From a virus (lineage: Duplodnaviria > Heunggongvirae > Uroviricota > Caudoviricetes): 4,579 bases of DNA. A program made the position numbers and the translations under genes. Where the stretch lies: IMG/VR virus record IMGVR_UViG_2698536450_000001; one strand, written 5' to 3'. How positions within the stretch are numbered: the first letter of the stretch is position 1; the number at the start of each line of letters is the position of its first letter. The notes under the pieces were generated by a model, which saw only the letters and a list, made by a program, of their open reading frames with translations, did no database searches and was not told the DNA's origin. Of this stretch, positions 156 to 4,579 are shown piece by piece.

Positions 156-509
156 TTATCGTCGCCGGTTAACAGCGGGTGGTTGCCCACGGTTGAGCCA
201 GAGATAACAGCTTCCCCCGTCATCCGGAGAAACACGATCCACCCAGAACATCTCGCCGTTAATGGTCAGCGTGTCACCACGCCGCACGGCACGCACCGTA
301 TCCGTCCGCACAAATAATGACGGGCTGCTTCCTTCAATACGGACCCCGCCACCGGCAAAACCCAGCGACTCCGGATCGTCAAAAACCCCCTGAACTTCGC
401 CGCCACGTTGTGCCCCCGAGGTGAACTGCGCACAGAGCCCCATCACTTCAACAATCGTTCTGTCCACCCCGGCAAGGGCAGCATCAAAGGAATTCTCAAA
501 ATCACGCAT
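156..509 (-). CDS. FII: Head-tail joining protein FII (lambda gpFII-like), 117 aa
   Basis: ORF track 156..509 minus. Translation MRDFENSFDAALAGVDRTIV...FWVDRVSPDDGGSCYLWLNRGQPPAVNRRR closely resembles my recollection of lambda gpFII (same 117 aa length, ...GDTLTI...FWVDRVSPDDGGSC.LWL.RG.PPAVNRRR). ATG at 509-507 lies 5 nt upstream of the FI stop (minus-strand ATGCGTGA), an 8-nt gene overlap typical of translational coupling. Confidence 0.9.
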   Translation of the reverse strand: MRDFENSFDAALAGVDRTIVEVMGLCAQFTSGAQRGGEVQGVFDDPESLGFAGGGVRIEGSSPSLFVRTDTVRAVRRGDTLTINGEMFWVDRVSPDDGGSCYLWLNRGQPPAVNRRR

Positions 510-870
510 AAACGGCCATTCCGCTCCTAACCATGTCTTTTGCCACTGAGGGGGGCATCAGAATTACTCTGCCAGCATCAACATGCTCAACAGGCTCACC
601 TGTTTCATCGTCAACACCGCACAGGTAAAAACACTTCAGAAGCCTGATACGTTCCAGAATACCAACGTCATCCTCACCGGTGTGCCTGCATGCCTGCTCA
701 TGAACGGTATCATCAACATCTGCGATTTCATTTTCCGAGGCGCAAACCTCCTCTTCCCACTCTGCCACACGCTGTGCGATATCCGCAGCACTCCCCGACA
801 TATCCGCCTCGCGCCCCAGCAGACCAGCCAGTTCACGAAGACGTTTCTGATTTTCTTCTTTTGTTGCCAT
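502..870 (-). CDS. FI: FI-like DNA-packaging / head assembly protein (lambda gpFI-like), about 122 aa
   Basis: Same frame as ORF 502..918, but I place the start at the internal ATG at 870-868 (MATKEENQKRLRELAGLLGRE...). This start is preceded by a GGGAG Shine-Dalgarno-like motif and lies downstream of the post-E hairpin, whereas the 918 start is a GTG inside that hairpin region. The N-terminus is lambda gpFI-like by recall, and the position between E and FII matches lambda. Confidence 0.75.
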   Translation of the reverse strand: MATKEENQKRLRELAGLLGREADMSGSAADIAQRVAEWEEEVCASENEIADVDDTVHEQACRHTGEDDVGILERIRLLKCFYLCGVDDETGEPVEHVDAGRVILMPPSVAKDMVRSGMAVYA

Positions 871-885
871 ATCCAGCTCCCTGTG

Positions 886-913
886 AAAAAAACACGGGGG
901 CATTTCGCCCCCG
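886..913 (-). terminator. Intrinsic terminator-like hairpin plus U-tract immediately downstream of the major capsid gene E
   Basis: Plus strand 895-913 is cgggggc-atttc-gcccccg: a 7-bp all-GC inverted repeat with a 5-nt loop. It is preceded on the plus strand by A7 (886-892), so on the minus strand the hairpin is followed by UGUUUUUUU. It sits 9 nt after the E stop codon (TAA at 924-922) and about 25 nt before the FI start. Confidence 0.5.
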
Positions 914-921
914 CTCACGGA

Positions 922-1950
922 TTATTTCACCTGTACCACCACAAACTCATCCGGATCCGGCAGCACCATCAGCGGCGCGGACTGCGTCATGGTGAATTCA
1001 CAGGACGGATCGCCCACGGTCAGCCAGTGTTTCGGGTAACGGGAAGAAGCCACCACTCCTTCAGACAACGCCTGTGCATCCTTAATGGCTCCATAGCAAC
1101 GAATCCCCTCTGCTGCCGTATTCCCCAGCACCAGCGTGCCCTCCGGCAGATAACGTTTTTCGGTACCGTCCTCTGCCACATAAGACGTTTTCGCTACCAC
1201 AATGGCCAGATCGCCGTAATACCCCTTGAAGGATACCACTGCGCCCAGATCTTTCACTGCCGTTTCGAGTTGTGAATTTGAACCGCGACGGGTATCCATT
1301 TTTTCGCGGAAAAGCTTAAAGCCATTCAGCAGACGCCAGACGGTACCGTCCATAATGGCAATATTCACAAGACCACTGGCCTGATCACAGAAAAGGTCGA
1401 TATCATATGTCGGGTCGAACGTGTCACGATCCTGTTTTGACCACTCCTTACCGCTACCTTGTATGATGTTATTCTTCGTCGATCGGCCAAAATCGACTTC
1501 AATTTTCTCGAACTGGTCTCCTTCCATCGTATATTTGCCATACAGCACGGCATTCACCGCCTGCATTTCTTCCACCTGCACAATAGCGTGCTCTTCCTGT
1601 TTGAGGTTATCAGTGATGATACGCAGACGACGGTAGGCCGGGTCGTTCAGCTGAGCCGGATCTTCACCGGGAAGGCGCTCAACCGCCTGCTGGTAATTAA
1701 ATTCGTGTTTCGGCTTGACGTAGCCCGGACGCAACACGCGGGTTTCACCACCACGATGGCGCAGCACTTTTCCTTCAACGATCGGGGAGACATAGGCCGC
1801 CACCGGCGTTTTTCCGGTAATTTTGTCCAGCATCACCTCTTCGGTGTGGAAATTCACCGTACGGCGGAAAAACAGCTCCAGAAATAGCGCACGGAATTTC
1901 ACTTTTTGTTCGGTATAACCGAGTAACTGGCGGGTCGTAAACAATCCCAT
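922..1950 (-). CDS. E: Major capsid protein (lambda gpE-like), 342 aa
   Basis: ORF track 922..1950 minus. The translation matches lambda gpE along its length by recall (…TTRQLLG.TEQK.KF…LFF…YVSPIV.G.V…RGG…PGYVKPKHE…DPAYRR.RII…EEMQAV.AVL.GKYTM.G…TRRGSNS.LETAVKDLG…GDPS.EFTM.QSAPLM.L.DPDEFV.VQ). ATG at 1950-1948 is preceded by an AAGGA motif. The length is close to lambda gpE (341 aa). Confidence 0.95.
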   Translation of the reverse strand: MGLFTTRQLLGYTEQKVKFRALFLELFFRRTVNFHTEEVMLDKITGKTPVAAYVSPIVEGKVLRHRGGETRVLRPGYVKPKHEFNYQQAVERLPGEDPAQLNDPAYRRLRIITDNLKQEEHAIVQVEEMQAVNAVLYGKYTMEGDQFEKIEVDFGRSTKNNIIQGSGKEWSKQDRDTFDPTYDIDLFCDQASGLVNIAIMDGTVWRLLNGFKLFREKMDTRRGSNSQLETAVKDLGAVVSFKGYYGDLAIVVAKTSYVAEDGTEKRYLPEGTLVLGNTAAEGIRCYGAIKDAQALSEGVVASSRYPKHWLTVGDPSCEFTMTQSAPLMVLPDPDEFVVVQVK

Positions 1951-1978
1951 AAATCAGTTCCTTTCATTCAGAAATCAG

Positions 1979-2000
1979 TCAGGCCACCATGGTGGCCTGA
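1979..2000. other. Perfect 22-bp palindrome (tcaggccaccatggtggcctga) in the D-E intergenic region; candidate RNA stem-loop or dyad-symmetric protein-binding site
   Basis: Read directly: 1979-2000 is its own reverse complement (9-bp arms around the central catg). It lies 8 nt after the D stop (TAA 2010-2008) and about 28 nt before the E start. On the minus strand it is not followed by a strong U-run. Confidence 0.45.
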
Positions 2001-2007
2001 TAACGTG

Positions 2008-2355
2008 TTACGGCAGAGCCGCGTGACTCAGGGCTGTGCCGGCAAAGGCATTTGCCTTTTTGTGTTCATCCACACTGTCAGGCCAGCGGATTGCCTCCGT
2101 CGCAAAGGTCCCCGACTTGTAATAGGTCAGCACCGTCTCTGTGCCTTCAAGCGGCAGTACCAGTATGCCAACCGCACTACCGGCTTTCTGTCCATCCCAG
2201 ACCACCAGTTTCCCGGTGGCTTCATCCAGCATCAGGGGCGTCAGAGCCGGTGTTGCAGAAGAAATCCCGCTGCTGCCTGTGGCGGTATGAGCCGGATCAT
2301 TACCAGCAAAAATACGTACTTCCGCACGCTGTTCAGTGATGGTTTTCGTCACCAT
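2008..2355 (-). CDS. D: Head decoration protein (lambda gpD-like), 115 aa
   Basis: ORF track 2008..2355 minus. The translation contains DPAHTAT...TPLMLD...KLV.WDG...A.VGIL...T...YKSGTF...FAGTA, which matches my recollection of lambda gpD. The size (115 aa versus 110 aa) and position between C and E are as in lambda. Confidence 0.9.
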   Translation of the reverse strand: MVTKTITEQRAEVRIFAGNDPAHTATGSSGISSATPALTPLMLDEATGKLVVWDGQKAGSAVGILVLPLEGTETVLTYYKSGTFATEAIRWPDSVDEHKKANAFAGTALSHAALP

Positions 2356-2391: not shown

Positions 2392-3207
2392 TCATGGCAT
2401 GGCCATGAGCATTTTCACGTCCGCATCACCGTCTGCTGACGTCTGTGACACGCCACCCCGCACCGCTGCCGGTGAATGATTCGCCATGAAATGTTCAAAC
2501 AGGGCGGTTGTGGATGCAGAGACCGGTTCGGCCTTACCTGATCCCGCAGCCAGCACAGCCCGGGCGTTCTCCACGGTCATTCCCGGGCAGGCAGCCAGTT
2601 TTTCAGCCTGCGCTTCTGCCCCTTTTGCCTCATCCAGGGCCATGATCTGATCACGAAGTGAGGGCCCGGCATCCGCCAGTGGTGCAGCCGCCAGGATCGG
2701 GCGGGCTTTTTCCACCGTCATCTCCGGCATCGCCGCCAGCGTTGCCGCCAGTTGTTCACGACCGTTCGCTTCTTCACACGCCATAATGCGATCGGCTTCA
2801 CTCTGCGCGGATGCCACCGGCTGCTGCGGTGCCGCCGCGGCCAGAATCGCCCGGGCCTGTTCAACGCTCATGCCCTGTTGCCCTGCCAGCATCGTGGCAA
2901 GCTGTTCACGTCCTTTCGCTTCCTGACACGTCAGGATCCCCATCACTCGCTGGTTCTCCTGCACTGCGGCTTCCGTTGCAGTTAATTGCGGCATAGTGCC
3001 TCCTCTGACATTACTGTTCAGCGCCGTGGCCATCACACTGATGGCATCCGACGCATTGATTAATTCATCCGCCAGCCCGGCCTCAATGCCGGACTGACCT
3101 TCAAAAACGGCGGCCTCTGTTCCCGTGACGGCATCAACAGACAGACCGGTAAACATCGCCACTTTTTCGGCAAACATCCGGCGCGCCGCATCAATGCGCT
3201 GCTGCAT
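2392..3207 (-). CDS. Nu3: Putative nested in-frame scaffolding protein (Nu3-like), translated from an internal start in the C frame; start position uncertain
   Basis: In lambda, Nu3 is the C-terminal about 200 codons of the C frame, translated from an internal start. The candidate internal ATGs here are at 3207-3205 (DMQQRIDAARR, with GAGG about 11 nt upstream), 3177-3175 and 3156-3154. The C-terminal part is Ala/Gln/Glu-rich and repetitive, as expected for a scaffold. Which start is used, if any, cannot be decided from sequence. Confidence 0.3.
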   Translation of the reverse strand: MQQRIDAARRMFAEKVAMFTGLSVDAVTGTEAAVFEGQSGIEAGLADELINASDAISVMATALNSNVRGGTMPQLTATEAAVQENQRVMGILTCQEAKGREQLATMLAGQQGMSVEQARAILAAAAPQQPVASAQSEADRIMACEEANGREQLAATLAAMPEMTVEKARPILAAAPLADAGPSLRDQIMALDEAKGAEAQAEKLAACPGMTVENARAVLAAGSGKAEPVSASTTALFEHFMANHSPAAVRGGVSQTSADGDADVKMLMAMP

Positions 3208-3897
3208 GTCCTGGCGAACCTCTGCCGGTAAGGCTTCAAACTGATTGCCATCCACCTTGTGCGTCCCTGAGTAAATCAGCGTGATATCCACACCGGCCTG
3301 CGCCAGATGACCGGCATAGCTGACATGGCTCATCATCACGCCAATGGAGCCGATACGGGATGTCTGGGTAACCAGCCGTCGGGAGCAGGCCGACGCCAGC
3401 AGCATGGCTGCAGAACAGGCCGTGTCATTGCACAGTGCCCAGACCGGCTTCTGCTGACGGAGGCGGTAAATCATGTCAGCGCAGTCAAACGCGCCGGCGG
3501 CCTGCCCGCCCGGACTGTCAATGTCCAGCAGTACGCCCCGCACCTGGCTATCCGCCATTGCCTGCTGAAGACAGGCGACAATACCGTCATAGCCTGTCAT
3601 TCCGGAAAATGGCCGCATACCCCCCAGCCGGTGCACCAGCGTGCCGGTCACCGGCAGTACAGCAATACCGTTCACCACCCTGTAAACACGGGCCGGTCGT
3701 TTACCTCCGGCCATGTACTCGTCCGTTTCAGCCAGCATTCCGGGAGCATCAAACTGTACCTGCTGTTGTGGTACCGAAAGACTTGCTGCCCCCATCTCGC
3801 GCCCGAGCGCGCAAAAGAAAACCCGCGCATAGGCGGGCTCCAGAAGCAGCGGTTCATTGAATGCTGCGGCAATAATGTGTGAAAGATTACGTCTCAC
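2392..3897 (-). CDS. C: Prohead protease / scaffold fusion protein (lambda gpC-like, S49/ClpP-fold peptidase domain with C-terminal Nu3-like scaffold domain), 501 aa, GTG start
   Basis: ORF track 2392..3897 minus. The N-terminus RRNLSHIIAAAFNEPLLLEPAYARVFFCAL matches the lambda gpC N-terminus by recall (RNLPHIASMAFNEPLMLEPAYARVFFCAL). Conserved protease-region blocks are present (NGIAVLPV.GTLV, GMTGY.GI, GAFDCAD.I, KPVWAL.ND..CSA..LLAS...RRLVTQT.R.GSIGVMM.H, ITLIYSG.HKVDGN). The start codon is GTG at 3897-3895 (plus-strand cac), preceded by AGGAGA at a 9-nt spacing; an in-frame stop lies upstream at 3936-3934. Confidence 0.9.
   Translation of the reverse strand: MRRNLSHIIAAAFNEPLLLEPAYARVFFCALGREMGAASLSVPQQQVQFDAPGMLAETDEYMAGGKRPARVYRVVNGIAVLPVTGTLVHRLGGMRPFSGMTGYDGIVACLQQAMADSQVRGVLLDIDSPGGQAAGAFDCADMIYRLRQQKPVWALCNDTACSAAMLLASACSRRLVTQTSRIGSIGVMMSHVSYAGHLAQAGVDITLIYSGTHKVDGNQFEALPAEVRQDMQQRIDAARRMFAEKVAMFTGLSVDAVTGTEAAVFEGQSGIEAGLADELINASDAISVMATALNSNVRGGTMPQLTATEAAVQENQRVMGILTCQEAKGREQLATMLAGQQGMSVEQARAILAAAAPQQPVASAQSEADRIMACEEANGREQLAATLAAMPEMTVEKARPILAAAPLADAGPSLRDQIMALDEAKGAEAQAEKLAACPGMTVENARAVLAAGSGKAEPVSASTTALFEHFMANHSPAAVRGGVSQTSADGDADVKMLMAMP
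2542..2952 (-). repeat. Three tandem in-frame copies of a ~35-50 aa motif (about 140-150 nt period) inside the C-terminal scaffold region of C/Nu3
   Basis: Protein residues about 316-452 contain ILTCQEAKGREQLATMLAGQQGMSVEQARAILAAAAP / IMACEEANGREQLAATLAAMPEMTVEKARPILAAAP / IMALDEAKGAEAQAEKLAACPGMTVENARAVLAAGSG. The repeat is visible at DNA level, for example plus strand around 2562-2590, 2700-2729 and 2851-2882 (cgggc.t.ttc.ac.gtcat..cc), and around 2610-2660, 2740-2800 and 2885-2945. Confidence 0.7.
3265..3852. repeat. Direct repeat copy 1 (inside intact C); 588 bp, about 99.5% identical to 3992..4579
   Basis: Base-by-base comparison of 3265-3852 with 3992-4579 at a constant offset of 727 bp. 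I find only 3 mismatches, in the motifs gacaatAccgtc/gacaatGccgtc, cgcatAcccccc/cgcatCcccccc and caccaccctg/caccacccgg, and no indels. Confidence 0.9.
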
Positions 3898-3991: not shown

Positions 3992-4579
3992 CCCTGAGTA
4001 AATCAGCGTGATATCCACACCGGCCTGCGCCAGATGACCGGCATAGCTGACATGGCTCATCATCACGCCAATGGAGCCGATACGGGATGTCTGGGTAACC
4101 AGCCGTCGGGAGCAGGCCGACGCCAGCAGCATGGCTGCAGAACAGGCCGTGTCATTGCACAGTGCCCAGACCGGCTTCTGCTGACGGAGGCGGTAAATCA
4201 TGTCAGCGCAGTCAAACGCGCCGGCGGCCTGCCCGCCCGGACTGTCAATGTCCAGCAGTACGCCCCGCACCTGGCTATCCGCCATTGCCTGCTGAAGACA
4301 GGCGACAATGCCGTCATAGCCTGTCATTCCGGAAAATGGCCGCATCCCCCCCAGCCGGTGCACCAGCGTGCCGGTCACCGGCAGTACAGCAATACCGTTC
4401 ACCACCCGGTAAACACGGGCCGGTCGTTTACCTCCGGCCATGTACTCGTCCGTTTCAGCCAGCATTCCGGGAGCATCAAACTGTACCTGCTGTTGTGGTA
4501 CCGAAAGACTTGCTGCCCCCATCTCGCGCCCGAGCGCGCAAAAGAAAACCCGCGCATAGGCGGGCTCCAGAAGCAGCGG
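3989..4579 (-). pseudogene. Truncated duplicate of C (C-prime): encodes residues corresponding to about 16-211 of the protease domain, then stops at the duplication breakpoint; its N-terminus and start codon lie beyond the window end
   Basis: ORF track 3989..4522 minus has a translation identical to residues 35-211 of the intact C product, and the frame stays open to the window end. The reading frame ends ...DITLIYSG then TAA (3991-3989), whereas intact C continues THKVDGN.... The stop codon is formed by junction bases immediately outside the repeat. Confidence 0.7.
3992..4579. repeat. Direct repeat copy 2 (upstream partial copy of the C 5' region); extends to the window edge and probably beyond
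   Basis: Same alignment as for copy 1. Homology starts exactly at 3992 (ccctgagtaaatcagc...); the bases just before it (3988-3991 ttta versus 3261-3264 gcgt) differ. Confidence 0.9.

Follow-up and report, generated by a model that had tools for sequence, protein, structure and literature searches.

The decoration–capsid region and its palindrome

The window, as the whole stretch of 4,579 nt analysed here is called, is the D–E region of a phage-21-like E. coli prophage, in which every gene lies on the minus strand. The gene order along the mRNA is a partial extra copy of a protease gene, the S49 protease/scaffold gene (3897..2392), the head decoration gene D (2008..2355; phage 21 shp, homologue of lambda D), the major capsid gene E (922..1950; phage 21 gene 7, homologue of lambda E), an FI-like gene (870..502), an FII-like gene (509..156) and the start of Z. 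The D–E region is 95–99% identical to that of phage 21 (shp and 7) and of many E. coli prophages, and over 2000 of the 5426 complete E. coli genomes contain a relative. The match reaches 99.9% across the whole window in E. coli O39:NM F8704-2.

The N-terminal part of the protease gene is repeated over 588 nt (window 3992-4579 against 3265-3852, with an offset of 727 bp and 3 mismatches), and the junction of the repeat, at about 3990, comes directly after the portal gene's final ~90 nt. This repeat is missing from the best E. coli matches (99.9%), which cover the 4579-bp query with about 3992 bp; it may reflect a genuine tandem duplication or the assembly of two related prophages into a chimera. 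The C-terminal part of the protease/scaffold (about 2430-3000, minus strand) contains three similar units of about 45 residues (…GMSVEQARAILAAA…, …EMTVEKARPILAAA… and …GMTVENARAVLAAG…), which correspond to the ‘Tri1/Tri/Tri3 boxes, function unknown’ of the phage 21 record M81255. Self-BLAST of the C/Nu3 region at word size 11 finds no repeat beneath these boxes at the DNA level.

The stop codon of D (2010..2008) and the start of E (1950) enclose an intercistronic spacer of 57 nt (2007..1951, minus strand), the length given in a preliminary description of this DNA. Downstream of D and upstream of E, it contains a hairpin built on a perfect 22-bp palindrome, TCAGGCCACCATGGTGGCCTGA, at 1979-2000. 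The sequence is identical to its own reverse complement and the symmetry ends there, with G at 1978 and T at 2001. No other perfect palindrome in the window comes close in length, the runner-up being 12 bp long. The analytic expectation for palindromes with 11-bp arms is 0.0013 for the whole window and 1.7e-5 for a 57-bp spacer; of 3000 simulations of the window under a first-order Markov model, 0.17% contain one. The exact self-complementarity claimed in the preliminary description and its improbability by chance are thereby confirmed, and folding in the mRNA sense recovers the 9-bp stem and 4-nt loop that it had placed between the D stop and the ribosome-binding site of E. It is right in every one of these particulars, save for the strand, which was left unstated and on which the genes are read as minus.

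In the late mRNA, the core stem-loop (1979..2000, minus strand) pairs UCAGGCCAC with GUGGCCUGA in a 9-bp stem closed by the loop CAUG, with a ΔG of −15.8 kcal/mol for the 22-mer, and begins 7 nt past the D stop. An extended helix (1974..2004, minus strand), beginning 3 nt past the stop codon, adds four pairs (GUUA/UGAU, including G·U pairs) over a 1-nt bulge. The minimum free energy over an 81-nt region is −23.4 kcal/mol in the mRNA sense (z = −2.2 relative to shuffled sequences), and the 57-nt spacer alone gives a z of −3.1. A gap of 16 nt separates the stem from the downstream Shine-Dalgarno sequence AGGA of the major capsid gene (1959..1962, minus strand; ribosome-binding site annotated in M81255 and OL657228.1), and neither AGGA nor the AUG pairs with the stem. 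The antisense fold of the perfect palindrome is as stable as the sense fold; a function on the antisense strand is rejected since the antisense tail, UAACGUGU, is not U-rich and the G·U pairs of other lineages exist in the sense reading only. A scan of the whole window with the Rfam 15 covariance models gives no match overlapping 1940-2020, even at E ≤ 10. A REP/BIME-type repeat is likewise rejected, as each E. coli genome has the element at one or two places, in every case next to the decoration gene.

The core stem, with six G-C pairs among its 9 bp and a 4-nt loop, is within the limits applied to the stem of an intrinsic terminator (GC-rich, about 5–14 bp, loop of 3–8 nt). The main determinant of intrinsic termination is, however, the run of U residues directly past the stem, and the single-stranded tail of the window (1963..1978, minus strand), CUGAUUUCUGAAUGAA, is AU-rich but U-poor. 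Past the GC core it reads ACUGAUUU, with U at only four of eight positions and at neither of the first two, where lambda-like homologues have 6–8 of 8; it is the second poorest tail in the set. This poverty in U belongs to the 21 lineage, whose tail is CUGAUUUC. A permissive terminator scan flags the window hairpin, solely through its rule of 5 T in 8 positions, offset by 2 nt.

Variation among close relatives and IS200C insertions

Close relatives were sampled as 120 IMG/VR contigs, retrieved with a pattern anchored on the conserved flanks only and thus without bias towards the palindrome. The palindrome is perfect in 82 of them, with a GCGG centre in 61 and the ATGG centre of the window in 21. 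Phage 21 is perfectly palindromic too, as TCAGGCCACCGCGGTGGCCTGA, and differs from the window at two central bases. An asymmetric GCGT centre, which leaves an 8-bp stem and a 6-nt loop, is present in 27 contigs and, with an extra change in the loop, in one more; a few contigs show further loop or wobble variants (including one ACGG), and about seven have an uncompensated stem mismatch or a 1-nt deletion. CCACGG, the single-step intermediate between the two symmetric centres, turns up in one contig of each of two overlapping IMG/VR samples (L046; L191), and natural variants with uncompensated stem mismatches include L016, L078 (G17→U), L161 and L086/L087. Compensatory double changes in the stem are absent within the phage-21 clade. 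A second, independent sample, anchored on the E start, gives the same picture of variants, and the remaining spacer is invariant there except for one G/T position.

An intact stem of 8–9 bp is found in about 94% of the 120 relatives and variation sits mostly in the loop, a pattern in which the stem is kept and the loop free, exact dyad symmetry being common yet dispensable. The conservation in relatives that the preliminary description proposed as a check is seen for the stem, at about 94%, and not for perfect symmetry, which is lacking in the 28 of 120 contigs with GCGT. A separate case is one contig (L033, identical to L166; IMGVR_UViG_2548876964_000001) with a normal spacer in which the D frame passes the usual TAA and ends at a TGA in the 3′ arm of the palindrome, so that ribosomes would translate through the hairpin in that variant.

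The U-poor tail past the stem holds the insertion point of a mobile element in relatives of the window. In about 10 of ~2000 E. coli genomes, a copy of IS200C (711 bp) interrupts the spacer 6 nt past the 3′ end of the palindrome, with the junction ...GUGGCCUGACUGAUU|IS between window positions 1973 and 1972, within ±2 nt. Loci bearing the element among the sequences collected are L002 (2522-3232), L061, L264 (1213-1930) and L265-L300. In viral contigs, all 21 distinct left flanks of IS200C examined consist of a GC hairpin and, after it, a T-rich tail that directly abuts the element, and one copy within gpU obeys the same rule. Terminator-like sequences have been described as over-represented just upstream of IS200/IS605 elements (PMC13548323). 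The IS200C machinery presumably groups the palindrome and its tail with terminator-shaped sites, recognized as a hairpin in single-stranded DNA. As a secondary reading, the hairpin extruded in single-stranded DNA would be a recurrent landing pad for IS200C that inactivates prophages, and the insertion data designate such hairpins as vulnerable points for prophage disruption.

The hairpins flanking E in lambda-like lineages

For more distant comparisons, an alignment of three E proteins was used to fetch one locus per species, and every spacer from D stop to E start was extracted. The lineages covered are those of E. coli, Salmonella Gifsy-1, Serratia, Buttiauxella, Kluyvera, Klebsiella, Trabulsiella, Erwinia and an Aeromonadaceae MAG. 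A GC-rich hairpin on the sense strand is present in 18 of 19 representatives, down to ~57% identity in E, with stems of 7–10 bp, loops of 3–6 nt and as many as 15 distinct 5′ arms among the 19 spacers. Examples are those of lambda (AAAGGCCGCcuguGCGGCUUUUUUU, lambda 6098-6120), Gifsy-1 (GAAGGCCGCgaaGCGGCCUUU), Serratia (AAAGGCUGCCaauuGGCGGCCUUU), Trabulsiella (GGGUCGCccugGCGGCCC) and the form found in Kluyvera, Klebsiella and Citrobacter (AGCCGCnnnnGCGGCU). Nearly all of the hairpin-bearing spacers (17 of 18) fold better than their dinucleotide shuffles, with a median z of about −2.5. The only lineage without a hairpin is that of the Providencia relatives, in which the D–E spacer is reduced to 26 nt. 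Providencia alcalifaciens (L088/L089) retains a canonical post-E terminator, CGGCGGGgaaaCCCGCCG followed by AUUUUUAU.

Lambda-identical capsid contigs (L093-L108, L126-L134, L137), short and of low coverage, also turn up in assemblies of unrelated taxa such as Neobacillus, Kitasatospora, Paenibacillus, Bradyrhizobium, Akkermansia, Prevotella and others; they are almost certainly due to contamination of sequencing libraries with lambda DNA.

Two forms of the D–E hairpin can be distinguished. In lambda and a large lambda-like clade, it lies 15–40 nt past the D stop and has 6–8 U in the 8 nt past the GC core, while in the 21-like clade (the window, phage 21, Gifsy-1 and Trabulsiella guamensis/L090) it lies 3–7 nt past the stop, has 3–5 U in 8 and is more stable (−12 to −17 kcal/mol), the window-type stem topping all lineages at −16 to −17 kcal/mol. 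The distance from hairpin to AUG is 15–21 nt in lambda-like lineages. On this anatomy, the element of lambda and about 13 other lineages qualifies as a textbook intrinsic terminator with a tract of U6–U8. The D–E and post-E hairpins of lambda and of the window share their positions, their strand, a GC stem of 7–9 bp, a 4-nt loop and an operon transcribed by Q-modified polymerase. However, the two D–E elements have no sequence similarity; that of lambda lies 17 nt past the stop, carries a U7 tail and reaches −11.7 kcal/mol, whereas that of the window lies 7 nt past the stop, reaches −15.8 kcal/mol and combines a U-poor tail with a perfect palindrome.

Turnover of the sequence is particularly clear in Gifsy-1 and L090, which are 15–21% diverged in E and in which the sequence is replaced but the hairpin kept at the same place. 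The D–E hairpins include 16 G·U or U·G pairs in the sense reading, some of them internal (L090, L091, L092, L117), which on the other strand would be A·C mismatches. Since position and structure are conserved, sequence has turned over and G·U pairs are tolerated in the sense reading only, the spacers bear the mark of selection on an RNA structure, and a conserved protein-binding sequence is excluded; this evidence of covariation is a comparison between lineages whose spacers cannot be aligned base by base. These comparisons show that the hairpin is selected as a structure of the late mRNA, and neither as a sequence nor as a symmetric DNA site. It is not indispensable, given the natural mismatch variants and its lack in Providencia.

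The D–E hairpin has a partner on the other side of the capsid gene. In the window, a canonical intrinsic-terminator hairpin (886..914, minus strand) separates E from FI, with the stem-loop GCGGGGGCgaaauGCCCCCGU (914..894) followed by GUUUUUUU, and a second hairpin in the E–FI spacer exists in nearly all lambda-like lineages examined. The bracketing of E by structured RNA, noted in the preliminary description, is therefore real and conserved in nearly all of these lineages. The post-E hairpin of lambda is AUGGCCCuucgGGGCCAU, with a UUCG tetraloop, and lambda-like loci usually show a C(UUCG)G tetraloop at this place, as in GGCCCuucgGGGCC (L004 1562-1580 and lambda-like loci). This RNA-specific stability motif is consistent with an RNA-level role of the E-flanking hairpins. 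A strict reciprocity between clades, in which a U-rich hairpin on one side of E would go with a U-poor one on the other, was considered and rejected, as many lambda-like post-E tails are also moderately U-rich.

The surrounding operon is compact; in most lineages the C–D spacer measures 9–36 nt, and the other late genes are for the most part contiguous or overlapping. When sense-strand terminator-like structures are ranked over the first 20 kb of phage 21, the post-E hairpin comes first and the D–E hairpin is also in the top two. Neither hairpin carries an annotation in lambda RefSeq or in the curated phage 21 genome, and the post-E hairpin has none in either M81255 or OL657228.1. The curated phage 21 record does annotate terminators at I–J and after J, and the Q21 elements are annotated in OL657228.1.

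Probable role of the D–E hairpin in the late transcript

Overall, the palindrome is probably (at a rough probability of 0.6) the phage-21-lineage form of a conserved sense-strand stem-loop, which would act mainly as a barrier to 3′-exonucleases or as a processing element and would give at most weak termination. The U-poor tail of the 21 lineage implies that termination of RNA polymerase not modified by Q is weak at most. Judged from anatomy, a stability element is the best fit among the roles first proposed in the preliminary description, which missed two points, namely the canonical terminator form of the lambda homologue and the incidental character of the palindromy. The exact 22-bp symmetry is best seen as a self-complementary loop atop a perfect stem. 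Such loops make up two of the four common loop variants, and 2 of 17 in other lineages against about one expected; symmetry is possibly maintained by quasipalindrome (hairpin-templated) correction.

The alternative closest to the lambda situation holds that the hairpin is a working intrinsic terminator or insulator, at which unmodified transcription (for example stray transcription in the prophage) stops and Q-modified transcription passes, making capsid expression strictly Q-dependent. Lambdoid late operons are indeed transcribed by a terminator-resistant Q-modified polymerase, a textbook terminator stands at the homologous position in about 13 lineages besides lambda, the hairpin is picked up by the permissive scan and IS200C handles it like its other terminator-shaped targets. 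This reading is nonetheless rather unlikely for the window, in view of a tail with four U in eight and none in the first two positions, and of a stem which starts 7 nt past the D stop, near the footprint of a terminating ribosome. Loss of the U-tract in the 21 clade could also mean that a functionless remnant of the ancestral D–E terminator is decaying there, its symmetry kept or regenerated by quasipalindrome mutation and not by selection. Quasipalindrome mutagenesis is an established template-switching process, and it would yield the observed pattern of two symmetric centres (CCGCGG and CCATGG) with a rare CCACGG intermediate; moreover, stem changes that have no compensating partner, a 1-nt deletion and insertions of IS200C are all tolerated in natural prophages. 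Decay is difficult to reconcile with a stem that is the most stable of all lineages and not eroded, that about 94% of close relatives retain with a freely varying loop, and whose counterparts in Gifsy-1 and L090 changed sequence and kept the hairpin, so that this explanation is improbable.

Its location between the D stop and the Shine-Dalgarno sequence of E, together with the near-invariance of the downstream spacer in close relatives, has suggested that the hairpin modulates translation of E by insulating the ribosome-binding site, by blocking the scanning of post-termination ribosomes from D or by offering a standby platform. This is quite improbable for a stem that pairs with neither AGGA nor AUG and stays 16 nt away from the former, the more so as the distance to the AUG and the context differ in lambda-like lineages, where the element is plainly of the terminator type, and an equivalent hairpin follows E, where expression of FI is low. 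The preliminary description had further proposed processing by RNase III or the binding of a dimeric protein to the DNA as an operator; both can be set aside with near certainty. RNase III does act on double-stranded RNA, but its classical substrates extend over roughly two helical turns (~20 bp), against 9 continuous base pairs here or 13 with the bulge. The operator would account for a perfect dyad that exceeds every other perfect palindrome of the 42.9-kb phage 21 genome in length; it conflicts with the asymmetric GCGT centre of 28 of 120 relatives, with the unrelated stems and the odd-length or asymmetric loops of other lineages (GAA, CAGGU or GUUUCA), with their sense-only G·U pairs, and with the fact that the phage 21 genome contains no second copy within 5 mismatches and the window no promoter-like site.

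The preferred reading, in which the hairpin mainly protects upstream mRNA, can be cast as a succession of events. During late infection, the Q-modified polymerase would read through both the D–E and the post-E hairpins, and the long late transcript would be cut endonucleolytically in the AU-rich tail of the spacer. A putative site of the RNase E type is found there, CUGA|UUUC (GA|UUU), which resembles the cleavage preference of RNase E as known from its published consensus. After cleavage, 3′-to-5′ exonucleases would be halted at the D–E hairpin, leaving the D segment protected, and E would be shielded in like manner by the post-E terminator hairpin; together they would delimit a protected capsid-gene segment for the two head proteins required in greatest abundance. 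In the prophage state, any residual termination would help to silence the capsid genes. More tentatively, and with considerable reserve, the two E-flanking hairpins may form a conserved processing cassette that turns the cleaved Q-antiterminated transcript into discrete exonuclease-protected D and E messages, the D–E element of the 21 clade having become a pure stabilizer through loss of its U-tract. Full-text literature searches reveal no mention of the D–E hairpin of lambda or phage 21, and the literature searched contains no transcript-end, half-life or termination data for the site. Sampson et al. are said to have reported in 1988 that the differential expression of lambda late genes comes mainly from translation initiation, which would leave only a limited contribution to be made by an mRNA-stability element.

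Several known systems offer points of comparison. With intrinsic terminators, the element shares a GC-rich stem, a short loop, an intergenic location just past a stop codon and the orientation of the operon; it differs by the lack of a contiguous U-tract past the stem (ACUGAUUU), and efficient termination is not to be expected from such a tail. It resembles the mRNA-stabilizing stem-loops of malEFG (REP) and puf, as a stable hairpin placed directly 3′ of a highly expressed cistron within a long operon, with no efficient terminator tail, and a barrier to 3′-exonucleases would by analogy be the action shared with them. In contrast to REP hairpins, it is present in a single copy per phage genome and in one or two per E. 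coli genome, and has no REP similarity by eye. The stem-loop terminators of the SPP1 late cluster are likewise predicted stem-loops in the few long spacers of tightly packed late operons, but they belong to another phage family and host, and their U-tracts are present (PMC6316719).

The palindrome is an unannotated, ordinary terminator-like intercistronic stem-loop in a phage late operon, not a regulatory site of a new sort, and is no surprise to the specialist. Only two points are mildly new, namely the conservation of the D–E and post-E hairpins across lambda-like head operons and the U-poor version in the 21 clade. The significance of the finding beyond annotation is small, yet few non-coding features of lambda-like head operons are as well conserved as these hairpins. 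Were the stabilizing role demonstrated, phage engineers would gain a defined insulating element between capsid genes, and mRNA would take its part in the ~1000-fold differences in protein amounts that arise from one late transcript; the processing cassette, if true, would add a layer of mRNA stability to late-gene dosage.
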